Part shown: positions 1,824 through 46,620 of the stretch, piece by piece
Layout: each line of letters starts with the position of its first letter
Numbering within the stretch: position 1 is the stretch's first letter
From: an uncultured Candidatus Saccharibacteria bacterium
GTDB lineage: Bacteria > Patescibacteriota > Saccharimonadia > Saccharimonadales > 2-12-FULL-41-12
Length of the DNA: 64,000 bases
Direction of reading: 5' to 3'
Assembly: GCA_964615775.1 (NCBI GenBank)
Contig: CAZTQB010000005.1
Coordinates: forward strand, 1,950-65,949
Made by a program: the position numbers and the translations under genes
Notes under the pieces: model-generated
What the model was told of the DNA's origin: nothing
What the model saw: the letters and a program-made list of their open reading frames with translations, nothing else
Database searches by the model: none

Positions 1824-3296
1824 TTAAGCTAGACTCTTTATATGACTTTGAATACGAGCTAGACTTAGTGGTTTGGCTAGTAGTTCTAATGTGTCTGCTA
1901 AGCCGGGGCTAGCTGGACTTTCTGTAGTGGCAATACGAATAAGACTAAAAAGCTCAGCTGGTTTTTTGCCGGTTACTTCTAGTAAATTATTGAGTGCATT
2001 TTGAATATTATCAAATGACCAGTCATCAATTTTATTAAATTGGTCATATGAAGTTTGTAGCAAGTTAGCTATTTCTGCACTAGATAGTTTTTTGAGCTGT
2101 TTGTGATTGCTTATCAGATCATGATTGACGGGTAGATCTTCAAAGAAAAAACGGCTCAGTCCATCAAGCTCGTCAAAAGTTTTAAGTCGCTGCTGAGTTA
2201 ATTTTAAGACTTTGAGTCGGTAGTTTTTGTCAAATTGATTATTGTAAGCTGATTTCGGCCAAAAATGTGAATTTATAGGATTGTCATTGAACGGCGAAAC
2301 AATCCTATATAATTTCTCTAAGTCCATGTCTCGGATATGCAAACCCTGTAGCCAAATTAAACGTTTTTCATCAAATCTGGCTCCTGATTTTTGAATTCTA
2401 TCAAGACTGAATTCTTGTATAAGTTCTTTTAATGAGAACATCTCTTTAGTTGTTCCGTCGTTCCAGCCCAAGCTGGCTAAGAAATTTATAAATGCCTCTG
2501 GCAAATAACCTTCCTCTCGGTACTGTAGTATGTCTTTGGCTCCGTCGCGTTTCGATAATTTCTTGTTGCCGTTTTCGTTCATAATTGGTGGCACCGAGGC
2601 GATAATTGGTGGTGAAATTTCTAAAGCCTCGTATAGATTTAGGTAGTTTGGCGTACTGGCCAAAAATTCTTGGCCACGAATAATATGTGTAATTTTCATC
2701 TCAAAATCATCGACAATATGTGCGAAATTGTAAGTTGGAAAACCATCTGACTTGATCAAAATAAAATCATCAATTGCTTCTTCGCCAGCTTTCATGTCTC
2801 CCATAACTTCGTCGTGCCATTGGTAAGCTTGCGGCCGAGACAAAAATCTAATCGGTTGGTTTTTGGCAAAAACTGTATTTAGGTTATTGGGCCGATGATT
2901 ACGGTATAAAAAAGGTTGTTTGGTAACTGTAGCTTGCTCACGGAAACCTTGGATTTCTGTTTGAGAGTAGGGGTCGATATATGCTCTGCCATTTTCCAGT
3001 AGTTTTAAGGCATACTGTCGATAAATCTCTAGCCTTTCGGACTGAAAGTAATTGTTTTTTTGAGCTTTAGGTAATGGTCCTTCATCATAATCTAGTCCAA
3101 GCCAATCTAGACTGTCGATAATATGCTTAACACTACCTTCAACCTCTCGGCTTTGGTCGGTATCTTCTATCCTTAGAATAAACTGGCCGGCTTTTTGTCG
3201 GGCTAGCAGCCATGCAAAAAGTGCTGTTCGCACGCCACCAACATGCATGTAACCCGTTGGACTAGGAGCAAAACGCGTCCGAATGTTATTGTTCAT
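1824..3296 (-). CDS. gltX: Glutamate--tRNA ligase
   Basis: Class I aaRS HIGH-type motif 'PSPTGYMHVGG' and KMSKS-type 'KLSKRDG'. Length (490 aa) and overall pattern fit bacterial GluRS. Confidence 0.93.
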   Translation of the reverse strand: MNNNIRTRFAPSPTGYMHVGGVRTALFAWLLARQKAGQFILRIEDTDQSREVEGSVKHIIDSLDWLGLDYDEGPLPKAQKNNYFQSERLEIYRQYALKLLENGRAYIDPYSQTEIQGFREQATVTKQPFLYRNHRPNNLNTVFAKNQPIRFLSRPQAYQWHDEVMGDMKAGEEAIDDFILIKSDGFPTYNFAHIVDDFEMKITHIIRGQEFLASTPNYLNLYEALEISPPIIASVPPIMNENGNKKLSKRDGAKDILQYREEGYLPEAFINFLASLGWNDGTTKEMFSLKELIQEFSLDRIQKSGARFDEKRLIWLQGLHIRDMDLEKLYRIVSPFNDNPINSHFWPKSAYNNQFDKNYRLKVLKLTQQRLKTFDELDGLSRFFFEDLPVNHDLISNHKQLKKLSSAEIANLLQTSYDQFNKIDDWSFDNIQNALNNLLEVTGKKPAELFSLIRIATTESPASPGLADTLELLAKPLSLARIQSHIKSLA

Positions 3297-7655: not shown

Positions 7656-8417
7656 TTACTCGATTATTGATGTAGCTATTGCTTGCAGCTGCTTTTTGGG
7701 TTGCTGAATAGCCCAAACCATTCCCTTGCAAAAGTTGTATTTTTGTTGGTCACAAGCAATAACTTGGCTACCTTGAGCCAGCCAGATAGTTGAGTTAGTA
7801 TACAGAGCTAACGTGGTAGGAAAATTCATAGAGATTTTGCTTAACGATTCAGCGATTAACCAGTTAGGAGAGTCCGAGGTAATTGGCTTGTCAAAGCTCA
7901 GACTAATGCCAATTTGTTGTAATGTTTTTATGTCTATCTCTAAGATTGTATTATCTCGAGCAAGTAGACTTTGCCAACCCAGGCTCAAGCTTTCTAGGCT
8001 ACTAGAGTTTATTCCTAGTAAACCTCTGTATTTGCTCAAAAATTTGTCAAGTGTCAGGGAAGTTTCACTATTTTTGCCCATATTACCTGCAAGCATTATC
8101 CCATCTACGTTTTTAGCAAGATCTAACATTTCAGACAGCGATCTCTCGGCAAAACTACCGCTCCTATTGGCTGGTCCGTAATGTATAAAAGGAATATTTT
8201 TGGTTACTTTTTGCAAAGACTCTGGTACAAGTAAAAAACATGCTCCTACACCTGCTTGTTCGGCCATAGTGTAGCTTTGGGCGACATTAGCTAGGTTGTC
8301 GGCTGAGCCACCGACTATCAATAGCTTGCCGGCTCCATTTCTATTTTCTGGGCGTGACCATAAAATGTCCGGAAAAAGTGGCTCATTTTTCTGGGTCTGC
8401 CAGTTTTGCTGCATCAT
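7656..8417 (-). CDS. YjeF C-terminal-like carbohydrate kinase / putative NAD(P)H-hydrate dehydratase
   Basis: 'GKLLIVGGSADNLANVAQSYTMAEQAGVGACFLLVP' resembles the N-terminal signature of ADP-dependent NAD(P)HX dehydratases (LVIGGS..Y.GA...A..AA.R.GAG). The rest is divergent. Confidence 0.5.
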   Translation of the reverse strand: MMQQNWQTQKNEPLFPDILWSRPENRNGAGKLLIVGGSADNLANVAQSYTMAEQAGVGACFLLVPESLQKVTKNIPFIHYGPANRSGSFAERSLSEMLDLAKNVDGIMLAGNMGKNSETSLTLDKFLSKYRGLLGINSSSLESLSLGWQSLLARDNTILEIDIKTLQQIGISLSFDKPITSDSPNWLIAESLSKISMNFPTTLALYTNSTIWLAQGSQVIACDQQKYNFCKGMVWAIQQPKKQLQAIATSIIE

Positions 8418-8454: not shown

Positions 8455-9348
8455 CTAACTCTTACGATAATAAGCCGAGTTAAATGCACATAGAGTATTA
8501 TAGAGCGTGCCATTACACATGCTTTGTGTGTAATTTTCCTGAGCTTTCTTATCGCTAGCACTAAATCCGCAAACACCCGCAACCCTAACGGCTGCCATTG
8601 GTTCTAATCCTGTTTTTTTTAATAACTCGTTATATCTCTCAAAATATTGAATCAGTCTTGAAGGGTCTATTTTTACCGAACCATTATAATCTTTTGAGTA
8701 TCCCATAGCTTGCTTAATGCCGCTGTATGAAACTTCTGCCCCAAACAGAATGGGCATATCTTCTTTAACGTGCCTTAAGGCGTTTAAAGTCTTTTCTATT
8801 TCTCTTGGTTCTTGAAGGGCTGCTGGAGGTACGATAACAATTCCTGGTCGTCTATTTCCGTGTATTTGCTCTATTTCACCTAAAAATTCCTCTACGAGAC
8901 TAGGAGTTGCAAGCTTGCCCAGCCTTAAGCAGTATGGGTTGAAGGCTGAGTAAAAAGCTAATCGACTATGGTCATTAAGCAAAAACTTACCTAGATTAGT
9001 CATTGCGACTTCTGATCCATTGAAGTGTCTTTCAGGAGTAAGTGAATGGTTGCGTTGACCGGTCAATAAATGTGATGTGTGGAATGGGGTATCTTTCGGT
9101 AAGTCTTCGGCAGTTGTATCAGTAGCTAGGCCAATAACAGGAATTCCTGGAGCTGATTCTCTGGCTATTTTTAAGGCATGTTCTATATCTGATTCTCTAC
9201 ACACATCGAGGATTTTTACTGGACCTCGGTGTGTACCTTCGTAAATACCTATGAGCAAGTGACTCATTGCTTCAATTCTTTCTTCGCTGGCGACATACGC
9301 ACGGCTTGAACAGAGTTCCGGGCTAGTTTCTTGGTTTGTCATAAACAT
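8455..9348 (-). CDS. Hypothetical protein
   Basis: 297-aa ORF with coding-like composition. No motif I recognise. Confidence 0.5.
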   Translation of the reverse strand: MFMTNQETSPELCSSRAYVASEERIEAMSHLLIGIYEGTHRGPVKILDVCRESDIEHALKIARESAPGIPVIGLATDTTAEDLPKDTPFHTSHLLTGQRNHSLTPERHFNGSEVAMTNLGKFLLNDHSRLAFYSAFNPYCLRLGKLATPSLVEEFLGEIEQIHGNRRPGIVIVPPAALQEPREIEKTLNALRHVKEDMPILFGAEVSYSGIKQAMGYSKDYNGSVKIDPSRLIQYFERYNELLKKTGLEPMAAVRVAGVCGFSASDKKAQENYTQSMCNGTLYNTLCAFNSAYYRKS

Positions 9349-10241: not shown

Positions 10242-10949
10242 ATGAAATATAAAAGGATTTTGCTAAAACTATCTGGCGAGCAGCTAGCTGGTAAGTTTGA
10301 AAATGGCATCGATCCGGAGCTAGCTGCTTGGTTTGCGAAAGAGGTAAAGAAGTTAGCTGAATCTGGTACGCAAGTTGTGATTATGGTAGGTGGTGGCAAT
10401 TTTGTGCGAGGAGCTCAGATTGCTGGACATGGGATTAAGCGAGTAACTGGCGACCATATGGGTATGTTGGCAACCATGATTAACGCTCTTGCCTTGACAG
10501 ATATTTTTGAAGCTTGCGATGTTAGGACTCGTTGTCTCAGTAGTATTTTTGCACAGCAAGTTGCCGAGCCTTTTGTCTTTCGCTTAGCTAATAAACACCT
10601 AGAGAAAGGCCGCGTGGTTGTAGTGGGTGGTGGTACTGGTCAGCCTTATCTTACCACCGATACTGCGGCTGTTTCTTTGGCACTGCAAATGGACTGCGAG
10701 ATTGTGCTTAAGGCTACTAAAGTTGACGGTGTTTATGACAAAGATCCAAGCAAGCATGATGATGCTCTGAGATTTAGTGAGCTTAGTTTTCAGCGAGCTG
10801 TCGAGGACGACAACATTAAGGTTATGGACAAAGCTGCAATTGGGTTAGCCATGGAGCAAGGTATGAAAGTTGTGGTCTTTAATCCAATGGGCGAAGACGC
10901 TATCTTGAAAGTTTGTCGCGGCCAAGACATCGGCACCACCATCAGCTAA
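10242..10949 (+). CDS. pyrH: UMP kinase
   Basis: 'YKRILLKLSGE', 'VVIMVGGGNFVRG' and 'TTDTAA' are amino-acid-kinase-fold UMP kinase motifs. Confidence 0.93.
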   Translation: MKYKRILLKLSGEQLAGKFENGIDPELAAWFAKEVKKLAESGTQVVIMVGGGNFVRGAQIAGHGIKRVTGDHMGMLATMINALALTDIFEACDVRTRCLSSIFAQQVAEPFVFRLANKHLEKGRVVVVGGGTGQPYLTTDTAAVSLALQMDCEIVLKATKVDGVYDKDPSKHDDALRFSELSFQRAVEDDNIKVMDKAAIGLAMEQGMKVVVFNPMGEDAILKVCRGQDIGTTIS

Positions 10950-24605: not shown

Positions 24606-25229
24606 ATGAATCTTCATAAAGTTATAAAGAGTATTATCAGAAGTATATTTACTAGGTTGGCGGCTTTTTTAAATAAAATCTTCAGAGGCAAAATTACGCC
24701 AAATATGGTAACGGTGGTTGGCTTGTTGGCCCATTTGCCGATTGTTTTTTTACTATTTGATGGTCGACTGGTTCTTGGAGGTGTTATGATAATTATCTTC
24801 GGGCTTTTTGACACACTAGATGGTGCTTTAGCTAGGGTTCAAAATGTTGCTAGCACCAAGGGTATGTTTTTAGATGCTTTGAGTGACCGGCTAAAAGAAG
24901 TTTTGATATTAACTGGACTTAGCGGTTATTTTTTGGAGATAAATAATGACTTGGGGGTTATCTTATGTATCTTAACGCTCGGTATTTCTATGAGTGTAAG
25001 TTATGCAAAGGCCAAAGGTGAAGCTGCAATTGTTGTTAGCAAGTATAAAATATCCCACGATGAACTCAATAGATTTTTTGAAGACGGCCTGGGTGCCTAT
25101 GAAATTCGGATTTTCTTAATTGCTCTTGGATGTTTGTTTGGGTATCCATCAATATTTTTAAGTATTATTTTATTGCTTGCTAGCTATACTTTGTTGTTAA
25201 GGACTATTAAAATTATGAAAGCTTTATAG
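24606..25229 (+). CDS. CDP-alcohol phosphatidyltransferase
   Basis: Complete D(x)2DG(x)2AR(x)8G(x)3D(x)3D motif: 'FDTLDGALARVQNVASTKGMFLDALSDR'. Multi-TM protein. Confidence 0.85.
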   Translation: MNLHKVIKSIIRSIFTRLAAFLNKIFRGKITPNMVTVVGLLAHLPIVFLLFDGRLVLGGVMIIIFGLFDTLDGALARVQNVASTKGMFLDALSDRLKEVLILTGLSGYFLEINNDLGVILCILTLGISMSVSYAKAKGEAAIVVSKYKISHDELNRFFEDGLGAYEIRIFLIALGCLFGYPSIFLSIILLLASYTLLLRTIKIMKAL

Positions 25230-36928: not shown

Positions 36929-38845
36929 TTGGCAAAAAAATCTAAAAAGAATCCACAATCAATATTTATAAAAGACTACTCTAGACCAGTAACTGTCTAT
37001 GCAATAATCATATCTATATTTTTTGTGATTTTAATTTTTGGCATGAAGGCTTATATTGCCAATGAGAGCTTAGACGAAGTTCCGTCGAACGCAGACTATA
37101 AAAATTCAAACATAGTTGTAAGCCAGCGAGTTGATGATTTGATGTCAAGAATGACCCAAAAAGAAAAAGTTGGCCAAATGGCACTTGTAGATAAAAATAG
37201 CTTGATTAAACCAGAAGATATTAAACGATATAATCTTGGAGCATTACTCAGCGGAGCCGGTGCTAAGCCGGATAATAATACTGCTAAAGGCTGGGCAGAT
37301 ATGATCACTGGCTATCAGGACGAAGCAAAGAAAACTCGGTTGCAAATCCCGCTTTTTTACGGGATTGATGCTAATCATGGACACACTAATATACCTGGAG
37401 CAGCTGTATTTCCGCACGCAATTGGCTTGGGTGCGGCTAATGATACCGATTTAACCGCGAGAGTTGCTGCAGCAACTAGTCAGGAATTGGCGGCGACAGG
37501 TGTAAATTGGAGTTACTCTCCATCGCTTGATGCTCCAAAAGATATTAGATGGGGTCGAGTTTACGAAGCTTTTTCAGATGATCCGGAATTAATAAAGACC
37601 CAAGGTGTAGCATTTATCAAAGGTACTCAAGCTAAAAACCAAAATAATTTAGAAGTTATGGCGACTGCTAAGCATTATCTGGCGACTGGCGATCAAGTTT
37701 GGGGTGAGTCGGATAATAAAAATTTCAAGATCGATCAAGGTAGGGTTAAGCCTGATGAACAGAGATTAGAAAATGAGTATTTGCCTCCATTTAAGTCTGC
37801 AATTGATGCCGGTGTGCCAAGTGTGATGGTGGCACTGCATAAATGGGATGACCAGACAATTGTAACTAATAAATATTTGGTAAATGACAAACTAAAGAAT
37901 GAACTAGGCTTCAAGGGTTTTGTTGTTAGTGATTGGTATGGAGTGTATGAACGGGCTGGAGACTACTACTCTGCGACAGTTAAAGCAATTAATTCTGGGC
38001 TGGATATGGCAATGTTGCCATTTGATTATAAGAGCTTTGAGAAAGATATGCTAAAAGCACTAAAAAACGGTGATATAAAACAGGAACGAGTCGATGATTC
38101 GGTTAGAAGAATTTTAACTGCTAAATTTGAAGCTGGTTTATTTGACCAAAAGTCAGTTGATTATAATAGTTTTAGTCAGGTTGGAAGTAATTCGCACAGA
38201 GAAATTGCTCGTGAAGCAGTTGCCAAATCGGCTGTATTACTAAAAAATGATAATGTTTTACCACTTTCTGCGAATCAAAAAATTTTGCTGAGTGGTAGCG
38301 GGGCTAACAATGTTGGGCGGCAATCTGGTGCTTGGACTGTAGAGTGGCAAGGAATAGACGGCAACTGGCTACCTGGCTCAACCTCTATTAAACAGGCATT
38401 TGACAAGAATGATAACAATATAACTTTTTCTGAGAAAGGTAATTTTACGGGTGGAGTTTATGGCGATATTGGAGTTGTTGTAGTTAGCGAGAAACCTTAT
38501 GCCGAAGGCTGGGGAGACAATCCAAAACCAGAGATATCCACCGAAGACATGAAAGCAATTAAACTAACAAGAGAAAGGGTCAATAAATTAGTAATTGTAA
38601 TAGTATCTGGAAGACCGCTGATTTTAGATCAAGCCGAGTTAGCTAAATGGGACGGTTTGGTGGCTGTCTGGCTACCTGGTTCTGAAGGAGACGGTGTGGC
38701 AGATGTTTTATTTGGAAAGAAAGAATTCAAAGGTAAATTACCTATAACCTGGCCGGCAAACACACTTCAGCTACCCATTCAAGCAAATGGCCAAACGGCC
38801 GATTTCACTCCACCGCTTTTTCCTCGCTACTATTCGATAAAATAA
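36929..38845 (+). CDS. Glycoside hydrolase family 3 (beta-glucosidase/beta-hexosaminidase-like), membrane anchored
   Basis: TTG start. N-terminal TM. 'GIDANHGH', 'KHYLATGD' and nucleophile context 'KGFVVSDWYG'. Two-domain GH3 length. Confidence 0.88.
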   Translation: MAKKSKKNPQSIFIKDYSRPVTVYAIIISIFFVILIFGMKAYIANESLDEVPSNADYKNSNIVVSQRVDDLMSRMTQKEKVGQMALVDKNSLIKPEDIKRYNLGALLSGAGAKPDNNTAKGWADMITGYQDEAKKTRLQIPLFYGIDANHGHTNIPGAAVFPHAIGLGAANDTDLTARVAAATSQELAATGVNWSYSPSLDAPKDIRWGRVYEAFSDDPELIKTQGVAFIKGTQAKNQNNLEVMATAKHYLATGDQVWGESDNKNFKIDQGRVKPDEQRLENEYLPPFKSAIDAGVPSVMVALHKWDDQTIVTNKYLVNDKLKNELGFKGFVVSDWYGVYERAGDYYSATVKAINSGLDMAMLPFDYKSFEKDMLKALKNGDIKQERVDDSVRRILTAKFEAGLFDQKSVDYNSFSQVGSNSHREIAREAVAKSAVLLKNDNVLPLSANQKILLSGSGANNVGRQSGAWTVEWQGIDGNWLPGSTSIKQAFDKNDNNITFSEKGNFTGGVYGDIGVVVVSEKPYAEGWGDNPKPEISTEDMKAIKLTRERVNKLVIVIVSGRPLILDQAELAKWDGLVAVWLPGSEGDGVADVLFGKKEFKGKLPITWPANTLQLPIQANGQTADFTPPLFPRYYSIK

Positions 38846-38889
38846 TTTTCAATAATTTAAAAACAGGTATAGAATACTTTATATTGTTT

Positions 38890-40768
<1,879 letters not shown>

Positions 40769-40868
40769 CTACTACAAGTGTTATTATCTGTAAAATTGAG
40801 TAGCTCAAAAAATATTCAAATGTGGAGTAGTGGTGATTTTAGTTTTGATTTTTAGTTTTTTATATTAG

Positions 40869-41441
40869 CTATAAATCTGAGTGTGGTATAGGAAGATAGT
40901 TTTCTGTTCTTACTTCTCGGCCGTAGTACTGATTGGTCACTTTAACTACATCTGAACAAAGTTGGTATCTTTCGTCGACAGTAAATAAAAGTTGACTAGG
41001 TCCTTGATTTGAGGCGTTATTCATAAAAACGCTAAGACAGATAGCGTCACCGCTGTTGGTTGATTCATGTCTTGAACTGACCACTGACAGGACTTGCCAG
41101 ACACTATTTTCGGTTTTCTGAGCAATAAACCAACCAGATGGATCACTTTGTGAAACATAGTGGTCTTTAATGATGATAAGAGTTTGGGTGAGAAAAGAAT
41201 TTTCTGGGTTTGATTCGACTGCCGCAATTGGTACACCGTAGTGTCTGATACCTCTATCTTCGACATTCATAATTATACTTGATGGCTCTTCATCAAGACC
41301 AGCTGGTTGTCCGCCGTCAGGGTCTTGTCTCATGATAAGTTTGCCAAATAACTTTAAGAAATCTTCATTAGCTGGAGGCTCTAATTCAGGTTGTGTTTCT
41401 GAGTTTTTGTGTGTGTTTTCGATTGTCTCTGGGTTTAACAT
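40869..41441 (-). CDS. Hypothetical cytoplasmic protein
   Basis: 190-aa ORF, acidic N-terminus, no recognisable motif. Confidence 0.45.
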   Translation of the reverse strand: MLNPETIENTHKNSETQPELEPPANEDFLKLFGKLIMRQDPDGGQPAGLDEEPSSIIMNVEDRGIRHYGVPIAAVESNPENSFLTQTLIIIKDHYVSQSDPSGWFIAQKTENSVWQVLSVVSSRHESTNSGDAICLSVFMNNASNQGPSQLLFTVDERYQLCSDVVKVTNQYYGREVRTENYLPIPHSDL

Positions 41442-41519
41442 TTTATTACTTTAGGTAGCTATAACCATATAGATACTCCTCAAAAGCTTAACTGTCAATA
41501 ACCTTAAGATCTTTTGAGC

Positions 41520-42086
41520 TTATTTTTGAACAGCCTCTACCACTATTCGACCATCAGCCGAACCGTTAAGAGTACAAGAATAGAGAGTCAATTTTGCTTG
41601 GTCCGAGTGTTCTTCTATCTGTACGTCGGTTGGCTTTACGCTGTAAGTTTTGGTGATGGTGTAGTTATAGCGCTTTTTATTCCAATCAACAATTATCTGG
41701 TCATTTACGTTTAATTTGTCTAGATTATATAAAACTGAATCCTCTACTACTTTATCTGGTTTTAAGGCGAAAACGTAACGGTGTCCGGCTAAAACAAAAT
41801 TACCACCTTTTTCAGGGTCACCATTTTCTGGTAATCTATGCCAAATTGCACCGTCTTTTAAGGTTGCCACCCCACCTGGATTTATTAGAGCATTTATAGA
41901 TATTTTAGGAATTATCAGAGTGTTAACTTCACTGACAGCTAGAGCATGTTGTTCAACAAACTTTTGTTGAGAAGTCGATGATTGGTTAATCGGCCGTGAT
42001 CCAGCTGCCACTAAAGTCAAATAGGCGATATAAATACCGCCTATTATTAAACAAAGAGCCATTATTGATCTAAGTTTTGACTTCAT
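41520..42086 (-). CDS. Sortase family transpeptidase
   Basis: TM anchor (IMALCLIIGGIYIAYLTLVAA), 'NFVLAGHRYV' (His), 'LTLYSCT' (Cys), 'GRIVVEA' (Arg). Lies immediately downstream of an LAxTG substrate. Confidence 0.8.
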   Translation of the reverse strand: MKSKLRSIMALCLIIGGIYIAYLTLVAAGSRPINQSSTSQQKFVEQHALAVSEVNTLIIPKISINALINPGGVATLKDGAIWHRLPENGDPEKGGNFVLAGHRYVFALKPDKVVEDSVLYNLDKLNVNDQIIVDWNKKRYNYTITKTYSVKPTDVQIEEHSDQAKLTLYSCTLNGSADGRIVVEAVQK

Positions 42087-42092
42087 TTATGT

Positions 42093-42509
42093 TTAGTTAT
42101 TTTTTGGAAGAGCAGCTACTCCTGCGGCAACAAACAATACTGCGATTGCCACAAAAATGTATGAATTAACACCTGTGTTGGCAAGCCTTGCTGTAGTAGA
42201 TGGCGTTACGACGCTGGCAGTTGTTGTAATCGGATTCTCTACAGTAGTTGCAACAGCCAATTTTGGAGCCCAGTCTACTTGTGGGATTATATCTCTTGCA
42301 AATTGACCGTAGATAACTGAAGTGGTACGTAGGTTATGTGTAACATTTGCCATAACTGTATCATATAGACTTAAATCACTGTCTTGCTGTACGCCTACTC
42401 TGTCAGTGAAACTGTATTCTTCAGAGTACTCAGGATCATCAACTCCAGCTAGACGAGTACCTTTTGGCGAAAAAGTAGCCAAGTATGTATCAGAATTGCT
42501 AGTTGGCAA
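42093..42509 (-). CDS. C-terminal part of split surface protein carrying LAxTG cell-wall sorting signal
   Basis: Ends 'TTARLANTG-VNSYIFVAIAVLFVAAGVAAL-PKNN' (LAxTG, hydrophobic helix, short tail). No signal peptide of its own, and only a TTG start. Same frame as the upstream ORF, separated by one TAG. 'FSPKGTRLAG' continues the upstream '[FY]SP[DK]GT' repeat. Confidence 0.6.
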   Translation of the reverse strand: MPTSNSDTYLATFSPKGTRLAGVDDPEYSEEYSFTDRVGVQQDSDLSLYDTVMANVTHNLRTTSVIYGQFARDIIPQVDWAPKLAVATTVENPITTTASVVTPSTTARLANTGVNSYIFVAIAVLFVAAGVAALPKNN

Positions 42510-42542
42510 AAGTACATCGACGCTGCATTTTGCTGCTGTTAG

Positions 42543-43457
42543 CTAGCAGGTGTTTGCTAGATTAACATACGAGTAACTACTTGGATATTCTTCATTATTT
42601 CCGAATGAGTAAACCAAAACTTTTGATACGTCTGGAGCAACATTAATAAATACTTCATCGTAATCTGGTGTATCAGTAATCTGAATACGGTCAGTGTAAG
42701 TCTTGCCAGCTTCGATCATAAAAAGATCAGAATTATAGCTTGGAAATTCACCGTCACCAACAGCATGAGTCATAGAGAAGTATATATTGCCATTTGCACC
42801 ATAGCCGGCGTTTAGGTATCCGTCGTTTGTTGGATTGATAACATTTGTTACGGTTCCATCAACTCCAACTCGTTCAATTCTGGTTGCTTCACCACCCCCT
42901 TCACTGTGAGATCTTGTATAGCGAGTTGCAATTGCATTTGTGCCATCTGGTGAGTAAGACATATCTAATACAATGTTGGTTGATAGGTTATCTTCTGCTC
43001 CAACTGTTGCAACTGGTGTTATATCACTTACTTTTGCACCATTAACGTCTATTTTGACTGAATTATATGTAACGGTTTGAGATTGATTGCAGGATTTATC
43101 AAGCTTCTCAAATTCTTCTTCATTAACGCAACTTAGTGCTGTCTCTGCGTACATTACAGTGTTTGTTTGGTTGCTAGGAGATGTTCCAACTGGTGCTGAA
43201 ACAGTTGCCGATGTTATTGCTGACACCTCTGGTGTGCCTGTTGCAATAACCTGCGAACTGCCAGTTTCTGGGTTGGTAGTAACTACTGCTGTATTAGAGC
43301 TTTCACTATCAGGTTCACTTTGTAGCTCAGTGCTAACCAAAACTCCGTCTTCACCGGGTAATGCAGCTTTCGCAGATGACGGTGTAAATATTACACCAAC
43401 ACCTAGTGTCAAAGCCGACAAAATTAAAAATTTATATAGATTTTGCTTCATAAGCAC
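42543..43457 (-). CDS. Secreted beta-propeller-like protein (N-terminal part of split sortase substrate)
   Basis: Signal peptide 'MLMKQNLYKFLILSALTLGVGVIFTPSSAKA', Ser/Thr-rich linker and TolB-like 'YSPDGTNAIA' repeats. Terminates at TAG 42545-42543 right after 'VNLANTC'. Confidence 0.65.
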   Translation of the reverse strand: MLMKQNLYKFLILSALTLGVGVIFTPSSAKAALPGEDGVLVSTELQSEPDSESSNTAVVTTNPETGSSQVIATGTPEVSAITSATVSAPVGTSPSNQTNTVMYAETALSCVNEEEFEKLDKSCNQSQTVTYNSVKIDVNGAKVSDITPVATVGAEDNLSTNIVLDMSYSPDGTNAIATRYTRSHSEGGGEATRIERVGVDGTVTNVINPTNDGYLNAGYGANGNIYFSMTHAVGDGEFPSYNSDLFMIEAGKTYTDRIQITDTPDYDEVFINVAPDVSKVLVYSFGNNEEYPSSYSYVNLANTC

Positions 43458-43540
43458 CTCCGTTAAATGTATATAAACGAATTGTAGTACTTATTTTGTA
43501 TTATGTCTAATATAATTTATAAGTATATTTCTTATGCTTA

Positions 43541-43963
43541 TTAATTAGATTGTTCATCATGTATATTAATCATCCAGTTTACTCCAAACTGATCAGCTAC
43601 CATGCCAAATTCATCACCCCACATTTGTTTTTCAAGTGGCATCACGACGGTTCCGTTTTGACAAAAATTACTGAATATTTTGCGTAATTCTTCTGTTGAG
43701 TCACCGCTCAAGCTGATACTAAAACCGGATAATCCACCTTCATAACCCATCGAATTTGGTGTGTCGGCCCCCATTATTGCCTCGCCGCTGTCAAGAGTTA
43801 GCATGCCATGCATAATTTTGTCTTTCTCGGTTTCATCTTCGGTAGCATTAAACTCACCAAATGTGTGCATTTCTAATTTTCCGCCTAAAATGCTTTGATA
43901 ATATTCAAAGGCTTGTTTCGCATTATTTTTAAAGTGTATGTATGGGTTAAGTTGTGTTGTCAT
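43541..43963 (-). CDS. VOC-superfamily protein (PhnB / 3-demethylubiquinone-9 3-methyltransferase-domain-like)
   Basis: 140 aa. 'AFEYYQSILGG', 'IMHGMLTL' and 'WGDEFGMVADQFGVNWMIN' follow the PhnB-like glyoxalase-fold pattern. Confidence 0.72.
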   Translation of the reverse strand: MTTQLNPYIHFKNNAKQAFEYYQSILGGKLEMHTFGEFNATEDETEKDKIMHGMLTLDSGEAIMGADTPNSMGYEGGLSGFSISLSGDSTEELRKIFSNFCQNGTVVMPLEKQMWGDEFGMVADQFGVNWMINIHDEQSN

Positions 43964-43978
43964 ATCTTCTCCTCAGTC

Positions 43979-44896
43979 TTAATATTCATCAATGATAATC
44001 TTCTTTTGGTTCATCATAATTTTGTAAGCTCCCGGCTTTTTCATCAATGCTTGGTCCATATTTCTTGGGACAATTTGCCAAGACACACCGAACTTATCTT
44101 TACACCAACCACACTGTTCAGACTCGGGTACGGCAGATAATTTGTCCCAAAAATAATCAATCTCTGCTTGATCTTTGCAGCCAACAGAGTATGAGACTGC
44201 CTCTGTAAAAGTAAAGTCTTGATCGACTCCAGAATCGTTAGCAACAAACCACTGGTTTTCTAGCGTAAAGTCAGCAAACATCAAACTTTCAGTAGTAGCA
44301 GGACCGGATGGTTTTTCGTAGGCGTAGTCTAAACCTTTTTTAGAGCTTCTAAATACACTAGTATAGTAATCAATTGCCTCTTTGGCTTTATTCTGTGCAG
44401 GTCCACCAAACATTAATGCAGGAATAATATATGGACGATCATCGCCATCTGGGCTAGTTAAAATTAGTTGCCACGAAAATCCATATTTATCCTGGACCCA
44501 TCCATAATATTTGCTAAAGTCGTATTCTTGGAGTGGCATTAAGGCTTTTCCTCCCTCGCTAAGTTTTTGCCAAATTTCATCTAGATGCTCACGTGCTTTG
44601 TCGTCTTTTTTAGGGTCAAAATTGATCATAAATGAATTAGCCGGAGTTGGCTTAAACTCTGGACCGGCATTTATACCGACAAAGTTATATCCTGCCAAGC
44701 AAAATTCTATAGTTAAGGGTTTGCCAGCCATAGCTTGCTGAAAGTCGGCTAGACCTTCCTCTTTTGACTTTGGGTAATTAATGCCTCCAGTTATCTTGCT
44801 GTCGGGAAAGATATTTACGTAAAATTCACTTGCCTCATTAACGGTTCCTGCGAACCATAAATTTGGTGTAATTTTCTGATTTTGGTTATCTGTCAC
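43979..44896 (-). CDS. Tandem PhnB-like VOC-superfamily protein
   Basis: Two repeats of the same fold, each ending in a 'KYGFSWQL' or 'KFGVSWQIV' type motif. Confidence 0.72.
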   Translation of the reverse strand: MTDNQNQKITPNLWFAGTVNEASEFYVNIFPDSKITGGINYPKSKEEGLADFQQAMAGKPLTIEFCLAGYNFVGINAGPEFKPTPANSFMINFDPKKDDKAREHLDEIWQKLSEGGKALMPLQEYDFSKYYGWVQDKYGFSWQLILTSPDGDDRPYIIPALMFGGPAQNKAKEAIDYYTSVFRSSKKGLDYAYEKPSGPATTESLMFADFTLENQWFVANDSGVDQDFTFTEAVSYSVGCKDQAEIDYFWDKLSAVPESEQCGWCKDKFGVSWQIVPRNMDQALMKKPGAYKIMMNQKKIIIDEY

Positions 44897-44972
44897 AAAA
44901 GTCTCCTTTTTTATAGCTATATTTACAGTTTATCTTATTTGTTTTTTAAAAATTTGTATGTGAGCTAGGCAA

Positions 44973-45899
44973 CTATTTTCGGTTCCAAAAAATTTCACCG
45001 TTACAACCATGAGGGGTTACTTCGACGTAACCTTTTTGGCAAGTTGTCAGGTATTTTACAGTGTCAGTACTATTTTCAGAAGCCAATTCTTCGACTTTTT
45101 CCATGAATTGGCTGACTTTGCTATCTTTAAACTCTTTAACTTCATTTTCGCTGTAAACAATTTGCGGGGGTATACGAATAATTATTGAGTAGCCATCGCC
45201 TTCATAATTAGGCAAAAAATAATTAAAATCGGTGGACTTTAACACTTCTTTTATTGCTGAACCAAATAGATTCATTGAACGACTAACTACTGGATATCCT
45301 TCATCTTTTACTATTTTGGTTGAGTTAATGATGTCAGAATTTATTACAAAGGCATTCGCCACATATGGTAATTTTAATAGTAATCCTTGGCAAAGTGGTT
45401 CGTCATCTGTTAATTTGTCAAGTTGTTCAGATATGGTTTCTGTCTGGGTAGCTAGTGCTTGCATAGTAGATTGAATCTGGTTCTTATCTTGCTCGGTGTT
45501 AGGTTTAACGCAGTCTTGATCAAAGGCTAATTGAATACAAAAGTTACTTATTCTATTTATATATGTAAGGTGCTGTGGATTGATTCTGCTACTATAAAAA
45601 CCATCTTCATAGCACTGGTCGCTCATAAAATTGCCGACAGCCGTACCTGGTAGGTATATTGCTCGTCCTGCAATTTTTTGCTTAGTAAAAGCAGCCCTAT
45701 TACCAGCTTTTTCTGATATAACACAGCCAATTGTGGCAATAAGGTGGTTATAGGGGTCATTGGTATCAAGAGCCATAGCAGCACTACTAATAAGTCCAGG
45801 TAGTTCATCTAGCCGACCAGTTAAGTCAACTAAAACTTTTTCGCAGGTTTGAGCCAGCGGTCTGAATTTTCTTGGCAGTTCACTCATATCTCTGTTCAC
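44973..45899 (-). CDS. Hypothetical protein with C-terminal nucleotidyl-cyclase-like palm segment
   Basis: 'AFVINSDIINSTKIV' and 'YEGDGYSIIIRIP' resemble the two metal-Asp strands of class III cyclase domains (F.D..G.T; GD....F..P). The protein ends before the usual N..R motif. Confidence 0.4.
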   Translation of the reverse strand: MNRDMSELPRKFRPLAQTCEKVLVDLTGRLDELPGLISSAAMALDTNDPYNHLIATIGCVISEKAGNRAAFTKQKIAGRAIYLPGTAVGNFMSDQCYEDGFYSSRINPQHLTYINRISNFCIQLAFDQDCVKPNTEQDKNQIQSTMQALATQTETISEQLDKLTDDEPLCQGLLLKLPYVANAFVINSDIINSTKIVKDEGYPVVSRSMNLFGSAIKEVLKSTDFNYFLPNYEGDGYSIIIRIPPQIVYSENEVKEFKDSKVSQFMEKVEELASENSTDTVKYLTTCQKGYVEVTPHGCNGEIFWNRK

Positions 45900-45954
45900 A
45901 GAAATATATTATATAATATTCGGGTGCATAAATTAAATCTGTTAGAATGTAGTT

Positions 45955-46221
45955 ATGGTAAAAGTTAGTGAAAATAAAGGTACAGTTCACATGCTTCCGG
46001 CTGATCTAAAAAAAACGATAAATACCAGCCAAATTTCGGCAAGAGTCTGGAATGATATAACACCACTAGCTCGCAATGAGTATATATGCTGGGTAGAATC
46101 TGCTAAAAAGCCGGAGACTCGAATCAAACGAATTTTGTGGGCAACTGAGAATCTTGCCAAAAACAAACGTCGACCATGTTGCTGGGCTGGTTGTCCGCAT
46201 AGGCAGCGAAACGGAAAATAA
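45955..46221 (+). CDS. YdeI/OmpD-associated family protein
   Basis: 88 aa. 'WNDITPLARNEYICWVESAKKPETRIKRI' is typical of the YdeI/OmdA domain. Confidence 0.7.
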   Translation: MVKVSENKGTVHMLPADLKKTINTSQISARVWNDITPLARNEYICWVESAKKPETRIKRILWATENLAKNKRRPCCWAGCPHRQRNGK

Positions 46222-46269
46222 ACTATCGGTTAAACCACAGCCTAGCTTAAGAAAACGATTTGGAGTTAC

Positions 46270-46620
46270 TTAAACTATAGTTTGCAATCGAAACTCTACC
46301 ATCTGCTTGATTAGTTTTTTTGGCAAAGGTTTGTTGTGCAAAAACTGAACAGCACCCTTTGACGTTTTAAAATTAGCCAGTTCTTGCCCAAAATGTTTTA
46401 TAACTGAAGGTGTAGGATAAAAACCGATGTGATTTTTATATCCAGCGTAGTGAACCAAGTTTTTACCGTTCAGCTTAAAGGTAGGTATGCCATAGTTAAT
46501 CACCTCTTCAGCACTAGGTATTAAATCTTTGATAATCTTACGGACTGTACCTAATCTAATTAAAACTTCATCATCAAACTGTTTTAAATATTTATCGACT
46601 TCGTTTGGCTTCATAATCAT
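46270..46620 (-). CDS. DUF1801 (YdhG-like) domain protein
   Basis: 116 aa. 'EVINYGIPTFKLNGKNLVHYAGYKNHIGFYP' is the DUF1801 core. Confidence 0.7.
   Translation of the reverse strand: MIMKPNEVDKYLKQFDDEVLIRLGTVRKIIKDLIPSAEEVINYGIPTFKLNGKNLVHYAGYKNHIGFYPTPSVIKHFGQELANFKTSKGAVQFLHNKPLPKKLIKQMVEFRLQTIV

Follow-up and report, generated by a model that had tools for sequence, protein, structure and literature searches.

The 64,000-nucleotide stretch analysed here (the window; positions 1,950 to 65,949 of the forward strand of contig CAZTQB010000005.1, GenBank assembly GCA_964615775.1) comes from an uncultured Candidatus Saccharibacteria bacterium. On its minus strand, at 42093–43451, lies a gene of 452 codons plus TAA for a sortase-anchored surface protein with a predicted beta-propeller, and this gene is interrupted by one in-frame TAG at codon 303 (42543–42545). 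Our results support the view that this is a single sortase-substrate gene with a premature stop. The best explanation, to which we give a probability of about 85%, is that a G-to-A change turned Trp303 into a stop codon in a young loss-of-function allele confined to one strain or sample, leaving the 3' part of the gene as an untranslated relic. An assembly slip is a less likely source of the TAG than a real nonsense mutation specific to this strain or sample.

Translation of the minus strand over 42093–43457 gives one frame in which TAG 42543–42545 is the lone internal stop and TAA 42095–42093 the final one. The frame reads SSYSYVNLANTC up to the TAG, resumes with LTAAKCSVDVLLPTSNSDTYLATFSPKGTRLAG and finishes with ARLANTGVNSYIFVAIAVLFVAAGVAALPKNN; directly at the stop, YVNLANTC is followed by LTAAKCSVDVL and then LPTSNS. 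The first-pass annotation, made from the letters alone, had listed two open reading frames (ORFs), 42543–43457 and 42093–42509, and proposed that they are parts of one gene in the same frame, separated by the TAG and 11 sense codons. This is what the translation gives: the 11 codons lie between the TAG and the TTG at 42509 that opens the listed ORF of 138 amino acids (aa). The second ORF has indeed a TTG start and no signal peptide, and it also lacks a Shine–Dalgarno (SD) sequence. The first one does begin with a signal peptide, but its listed start at GTG 43457 is very unlikely to be the true one. Translation almost certainly begins at ATG 43451, because an SD motif GGAGGT (43456–43461, minus strand) lies four bases 5' of this ATG, GTG 43457 overlaps the motif and the gene calls of all relatives begin with MKQ. 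Beyond the TAG lie 149 further codons (42093–42542), for the last predicted propeller strands, a Thr/Pro-rich stalk and the anchor. Estimated from base composition, the chance of such an open run is roughly 3e-5. The other 62 stops in the window are usually followed by another in-frame stop within about 0–30 codons, and the only long open runs are those that enter a neighbouring gene in the same frame.

The single-gene reading is settled by full-length proteins of 452 and 458 aa that align across the stop. A search with the joined protein against 5.8 billion proteins returned two clusters only. P0001 (452 aa, from one JGI and one ENA metagenome) is about 100% identical to the window protein; P0002 (458 aa, 68% identical) comes from the NCBI metagenome-assembled genome (MAG) GCA_964648105.1, labelled 'uncultured Candidatus Saccharibacteria bacterium'. 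When 1.84 billion representatives were searched exhaustively with a profile, only 25 proteins reached E ≤0.001, most of them 410–530 aa long. Apart from the window's own record there are no split members in the family: each full-length relative is a single ORF of about 410–530 aa that encodes both a signal peptide and an LxxTG anchor, and none of them has the two separate genes that would have spoken for independent halves. The cell-wall-anchored protein of about 450 aa that had been predicted from joining the two ORFs exists as intact 452-aa versions in contigs of the same species.

By exact look-ups of neighbouring proteins and of intact variants we collected 13 contigs of the same species, 99.5–100% identical to the window, nine of which cover codon 303. 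Eight of these have G at window position 42544 and thus TGG (L001, L002, L007, L008, L010, L018, L019 and L020, with 99.5–99.7% identical DNA). They come from the samples JGI 3300007493, ERZ27275264, ERZ27275250, SRR5933704 and ERR10643342/43/44/48, each a different run or assembly. A at this position, giving TAG, was found only in the window and in L009, a contig from the Logan assembly of ERR3839023. L009 matches the window at 2172 of 2172 bases, and L014 from the same run at 1389 of 1389. Trp303 is present in P0001, P0027 and P0030 as well as in the 68% identical orthologue P0002; in P0001 and P0002 it sits in the conserved motif C-W-L-x-A-x-x-C, and in more distant relatives this alignment column holds M or L. 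Scans of genome and metagenome contig collections for exact patterns around the codon gave no match. Thus the close relatives have a sense codon that is one step away from TAG in a collinear gene, as expected of a nonsense pseudogene. Of the options that the first-pass annotation had left side by side, a recent nonsense pseudogene or population variant is the one that these comparisons favour.

The other variation among the strains has the look of true divergence and not of noise, since 14 of the 15 differences between the window and L001 are transitions and eight of the 12 coding ones are synonymous. Over the 1359 bp of the gene itself the two differ at four positions, with no gaps. Eight other contigs cover the region of about 42137–43735, and there the window has three alleles that none of them shares, all in this gene: 43263 (synonymous), 42893 (Gly187 instead of Ser) and 42544 (the stop). 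There are no private changes, no further stops and no frameshifts downstream of the stop, which is why we consider the allele young. Ten strain contigs showed no second, independent knock-out of the gene.

Across the 13 same-species contigs the single-nucleotide polymorphisms (SNPs) in window 38000–46500 form a mosaic and are not tree-like. Such a pattern would fit a recombining population that has been sampled in 13 or more different runs or assemblies. The last 113 nucleotides of ENA contig k141_12510 (L002:3299–3411) are 100% identical to window 38392–38504, 2.2 kb further on and in opposite orientation; either the contig end is chimeric or the strains differ by a rearrangement. L018 and L020 have a 1-bp insertion near window 44884, at the 5' end of a 3-dmu-9_3-mt family gene (43979–44896, minus strand). 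This gene is called as 307 aa in these two contigs and as 305 aa with a GTG start in the window, so the annotated start differs between strains.

The joined protein has the layout of a sortase substrate. Its putative Sec signal peptide, residues 1–29 (43365–43451, minus strand), reads MKQNLYKFLILSALTLGVGVIFTPSSAKA and would be cleaved before ALPGEDG; in the AlphaFold2 (AF2) model described below residues 3–21 form a helix. The junction A-x-A / A-L-x-G-E/D-x-G is conserved across the full-length family members in an alignment of 24 sequences. At the other end, the LAxTG sorting signal that had been recognised earlier is borne out as LANTG, residues 423–427 (42171–42185). It is followed by 21 hydrophobic residues, VNSYIFVAIAVLFVAAGVAAL, predicted to span the membrane, and by the short tail PKNN with a single basic residue (42096–42170; AF2 helix 430–446). 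Pentapeptide, hydrophobic span and charged tail are therefore all found in the joined protein. L, T and G of the motif are nearly invariant in the family, which has the versions LPNTG, LANTG, LSNTG, LQSTG and LEDTG. The Gram_pos_anchor model PF00746 does not match the window protein at E 0.1 and matches five of 24 relatives at E ≤0.01. In all eight other same-species contigs that cover the codon, one polypeptide carries the signal peptide as well as the sorting signal; in the window strain the TAG at codon 303 separates them. It had also been suggested that the residues LANTC just before the stop echo the C-terminal LANTG. We rejected this as a coincidence: relatives have LTNNC, LTSGC or LLDDC at this place and no membrane span follows it.

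The passenger between the two signals is a family without a model in Pfam or NCBIfam. No profile of either collection, PD40/TolB included, reached E 0.1 with the joined protein. Among 24 relatives a single one matches PD40 (PF07676), with E 0.008, and a profile search of the PDB gave only marginal WD40 or propeller matches (best E 0.0022). The family comprises about 25 clusters at 50% identity and is unannotated. Besides the signal-peptide junction, with its A-L-x-G-E/D-N/D-G after the cleavage site, its full-length members share the blade motifs LSYSPDG and FFSPDGxxLIGT, a WAP motif, a Thr/Pro/Val-rich linker, and L-x-N/S/D-T-G with hydrophobic span and basic tail. From two sequences only, AF2 reached pLDDT 31; the model used here, made from the 24-sequence alignment, is all-beta with about 24 strands (pLDDT 78, pTM 0.78). 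Foldseek searches of the PDB with this model matched many propellers with probability 1.00, with 120 matches at E 0.001 or better. The top matches were acylaminoacyl peptidase, the prolyl oligopeptidase family, DPP8/9, kelch proteins and methylamine dehydrogenase, with 355–460 columns aligned, and TM-scores were modest (0.3–0.4 on the query). We take residues ~34–400 (42252–43352, minus strand) to be a probable beta-propeller of roughly six blades, a prediction at the level of the fold. Its blade motifs include MSYSPDGT and, beyond the stop, ATFSPKGT, so the repeat does continue downstream ('FSPKGTRLAG') as had been noticed. Of the label 'TolB-like propeller' given to the protein at first, the propeller part fits the AF2 and Foldseek results, while TolB/PD40 finds no profile match.

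It was previously thought that the stop separates a propeller half from an anchor half. The model places it differently, because strands 311–316, 322–327, 333–338, 364–369, 378–380 and 392–397 all come after the stop and still belong to the propeller. The stop thus cuts inside the predicted domain, off any domain boundary, and would remove roughly the last blade and a half together with the closing strand. The loss would comprise the last strand of blade 5, blade 6 and the closing strand. Cys309 is likely the disulfide partner of Cys302; it is lost by the stop and Cys302 is left as the C-terminal residue. Of the 18 alignment columns that are invariant or nearly so in the family, five (G336, P396, L423, T426 and G427) also lie in the lost part.

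Taken together, we propose the following course of events. The ancestral gene, with TGG at codon 303, encoded a Sec signal peptide, a predicted propeller, a Thr/Pro-rich stalk, LANTG, a membrane span and a short basic tail, with the sortase gene directly downstream. A single G-to-A transition at 42544 then most likely changed TGG (Trp303) to TAG in the window strain. Translation would end at codon 302 and yield an exported fragment of 302 aa, or 273 aa after signal-peptide cleavage. Without completion of the propeller, without C309 and without the anchor, this fragment probably misfolds or is lost from the cell. The 149 codons downstream, i.e. the 3' 450 nucleotides, would be an untranslated relic, except for the background of near-cognate read-through that any stop codon has. 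The TAG allele is probably a null or loss-of-function allele, as the fragment could neither complete the propeller nor be anchored.

Some points weigh against this reading. The loss-of-function step comes from a predicted structure, and the A and G calls come from assembled contigs. If the window assembly was built from ERR3839023, the two assemblies with TAG share reads and do not represent independent sequencing. Moreover, a gene free of other lesions could equally carry a very recent mutation or a low-frequency variant that entered the consensus. One alternative is a consensus, sequencing or polishing error: the organism would really have TGG and an intact gene, and TAG would exist only in the assembly. 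A difference of a single base, an otherwise undamaged gene, and TGG in the orthologue as well as in each of the eight other same-species contigs would agree with such an error. We nevertheless consider an assembly artefact improbable, because the TAG allele was recovered by two different assemblies: the contig of a second pipeline, L009, has the same A within its 2172 identical bases, and both assemblies would have to inherit the same miscalled reads. In addition, the two other private and harmless alleles in the gene (43263 and 42893) point to a distinct strain, and there are no indels or other broken genes among the same-frame neighbour pairs that we checked in the window. The pairs 24606/25233 (across a TAG), 16761/18012 (across a TAA) and 51012/51499 had been candidates for further split genes and were rejected; they are complete separate genes, which argues against general assembly damage in the window.

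Functional read-through or recoding of UAG-C, by a near-cognate tRNA, a suppressor tRNA or pyrrolysine, would produce a secreted form of 302 aa and an anchored form of 452 aa. In E. coli a UAG with C as the next base terminates relatively weakly, and here the stop is followed by C and by a perfectly open frame. Against this, the stop is not conserved at codon 303 in orthologues, the closest strains and P0002 having Trp, and it falls inside the propeller, where the short form would be no sensible stand-alone domain. TAG is also a routine terminator in this DNA: among the 63 ORFs of at least 120 aa in the window, 36 end with TAA, 20 with TAG and seven with TGA, four of the ordinary TAG stops are likewise followed by C, and the ORF ends that we checked coincide with complete Pfam domains. 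Genome-wide reassignment of TAG was rejected on the grounds of this usage. The window has no tRNA-CUA (its three tRNAs are Leu-CAA, Ser-GGA and Asn-GTT), shuffled sequences fold as well as the 141 nucleotides that surround and follow the stop (z = 0.09), and the region around the stop has no Rfam match. The regulated read-through that had been offered as one option thus finds no support in a conserved stop, an RNA structure, an Rfam element or a suppressor tRNA in the window, and we regard it as very unlikely. Least probable of all, and hardly credible, is that there are two genuine genes, one for a secreted propeller protein and one for a small anchor protein starting at TTG 42509. The NCBI record does annotate P0029 (302 aa) and P0028 (138 aa). 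Apart from these two, no stand-alone half appeared in the homologue search or in the P0001 cluster, and full-length relatives span both parts; the second ORF begins in the middle of a blade and, lacking both SD and signal peptide, could not reach the sortase. Selected loss, in which the strain sheds an exposed surface protein and escapes phage, host defence or an immune response, would be compatible with the young loss-of-function allele that we favour and not exclusive of it. Surface proteins of epibiotic Saccharibacteria are plausible targets, and the three window-private positions within about 42137–43735 all fall in this gene. Three SNPs are too few for any test, however, the allele occurs in one sample only and no independent second knock-out accompanies it, so that the idea is suggestive only and rather unlikely. 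That the TAG allele is something other than simply broken, either through a few per cent of UAG-C read-through, which would give a little anchored protein beside a released fragment, or as a knock-out of the propeller that is positively selected because it escapes phage or host recognition, seems improbable to us.

The lesion has left its mark in the public annotation. The NCBI record of the window contig contains the two proteins P0029 and P0028; exact look-ups of the two fragments gave no match, and both were found later through cluster membership in that record. In L009, the public gene call at 858–2171 (window 42137–43451) passes through the TAG and gives 438 aa, which looks as though the short contig had been translated with a table that recodes TAG. 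The two-protein call and the read-through call are annotation artefacts of the same lesion.

The cognate sortase gene had been reported to follow the substrate directly, and it does so at 41520–42086 (minus strand), 6 nucleotides after the substrate TAA. Its product matches Pfam PF04203 with E 2.7e-21 over profile positions 2–123 of 125 and has the motifs LAGHR, TLYSC and GR; public gene callers take an alternative start at 42062. Seven contigs of the species encode it without any amino acid difference. The sortase scores under the curated cut-off of every NCBIfam class model. A sortase gene adjoins the family gene in L003–L005 and L017 and not in L015; one is adjacent in the P0002 lineage, divergently adjacent to P0012 and not adjacent to P0003. 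The order at the P0002 locus is as in the window: substrate, sortase, tgt, Vut_1. Between sortase and tgt the window has a gene for a 190-aa protein without a Pfam match (40869–41441, minus strand). This gene is present in all nine same-species contigs that cover the interval (L001, L002, L010–L014, L018 and L019) and absent from the locus of the 68% identical MAG, where the sortase gene is directly followed by tgt. We had also considered a polar effect of the premature stop through translational coupling of substrate and sortase. This argument was dropped, as starts without SD are common in the window. An SD sequence (GGAG, GAGG or AGGA within 20 nucleotides of the start) is present in only 12 of the 64 window ORFs and many of them look leaderless, so that its absence before the sortase gene says nothing about coupling. 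Many starts have a TATAAT-like box 5–12 nucleotides before the ATG, e.g. 8455–9348(−), 7656–8417(−), 10242–10949(+) and 1824–3296(−). The few SD sequences together with these boxes suggest that leaderless mRNAs may be common in the source Saccharibacterium.

Elsewhere in the window, a CDP-alcohol phosphatidyltransferase gene (24606–25229, plus strand) ends with TAG, and one codon further on, in the same frame, begins a CarS-like gene (PF01864; 25233–25790, plus strand). Both proteins, the latter of the CDP-archaeol synthase family, have full-length domain matches, and the pairing is notable in a bacterium of the candidate phyla radiation (CPR).

Sortases are widespread in CPR bacteria (PMC6744442). 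Like the LPXTG-type substrates of Gram-positive bacteria, the joined protein has a Sec signal peptide, L-x-N-T-G, about 21 hydrophobic residues and a short tail with a basic residue, and the adjoining sortase gene has the H, TLxxC and R residues. LAxTG variants are handled by actinobacterial class E sortases, and LPNTA substrates by class D. It differs from those substrates in that the passenger is a beta-propeller without a Pfam or NCBIfam model and in that the window version is truncated before the sorting signal. With PD40/TolB and S9-peptidase propellers it shares the 'SPDG' blade signature and the Foldseek matches to acylaminoacyl peptidase, prolyl oligopeptidase, DPP8 and kelch; unlike them it has no significant PD40 match and no peptidase domain, and would be wall-anchored rather than periplasmic. 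The family is undescribed but fits a known kind of protein, the sortase-anchored surface propeller. It is likewise well known that LPXTG-type proteins can be truncated ahead of the anchor by nonsense alleles of particular strains. Listeria inlA gives examples, strain-specific surface-protein pseudogenes with premature stops, in which a point mutation polymorphic between strains stops translation upstream of the LPXTG anchor and gives a truncated, released fragment. In our case the stop falls inside a predicted folded domain, a functional secreted fragment is unlikely, and the allele comes from one sample only. An in-frame TAG with a long open frame behind it, and a gene call such as that in L009 that reads through it, also resemble programmed read-through or TAG reassignment as in pyrrolysine decoding and code 15 phages, whereas an unconserved TAG that is a normal terminator in the window, with neither tRNA-CUA nor a recoding element there, does not.

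For annotation this means that the public 302-aa and 138-aa ORFs belong together in one entry, marked as an interrupted gene, and that it would be wrong to take either fragment for a secreted or anchor protein in its own right. Automatic gene callers, some of which read through this TAG on short contigs, could wrongly suggest stop codon reassignment. The window strain offers a natural null allele for the family gene. If selection for the knock-out is true, the locus would be a natural marker for a protein at the interface with host or phage. The two family members that can be placed, the window's relatives and P0002, belong to Saccharibacteria, and the family is a reasonable candidate for cell-surface interactions in Saccharibacteria epibionts.

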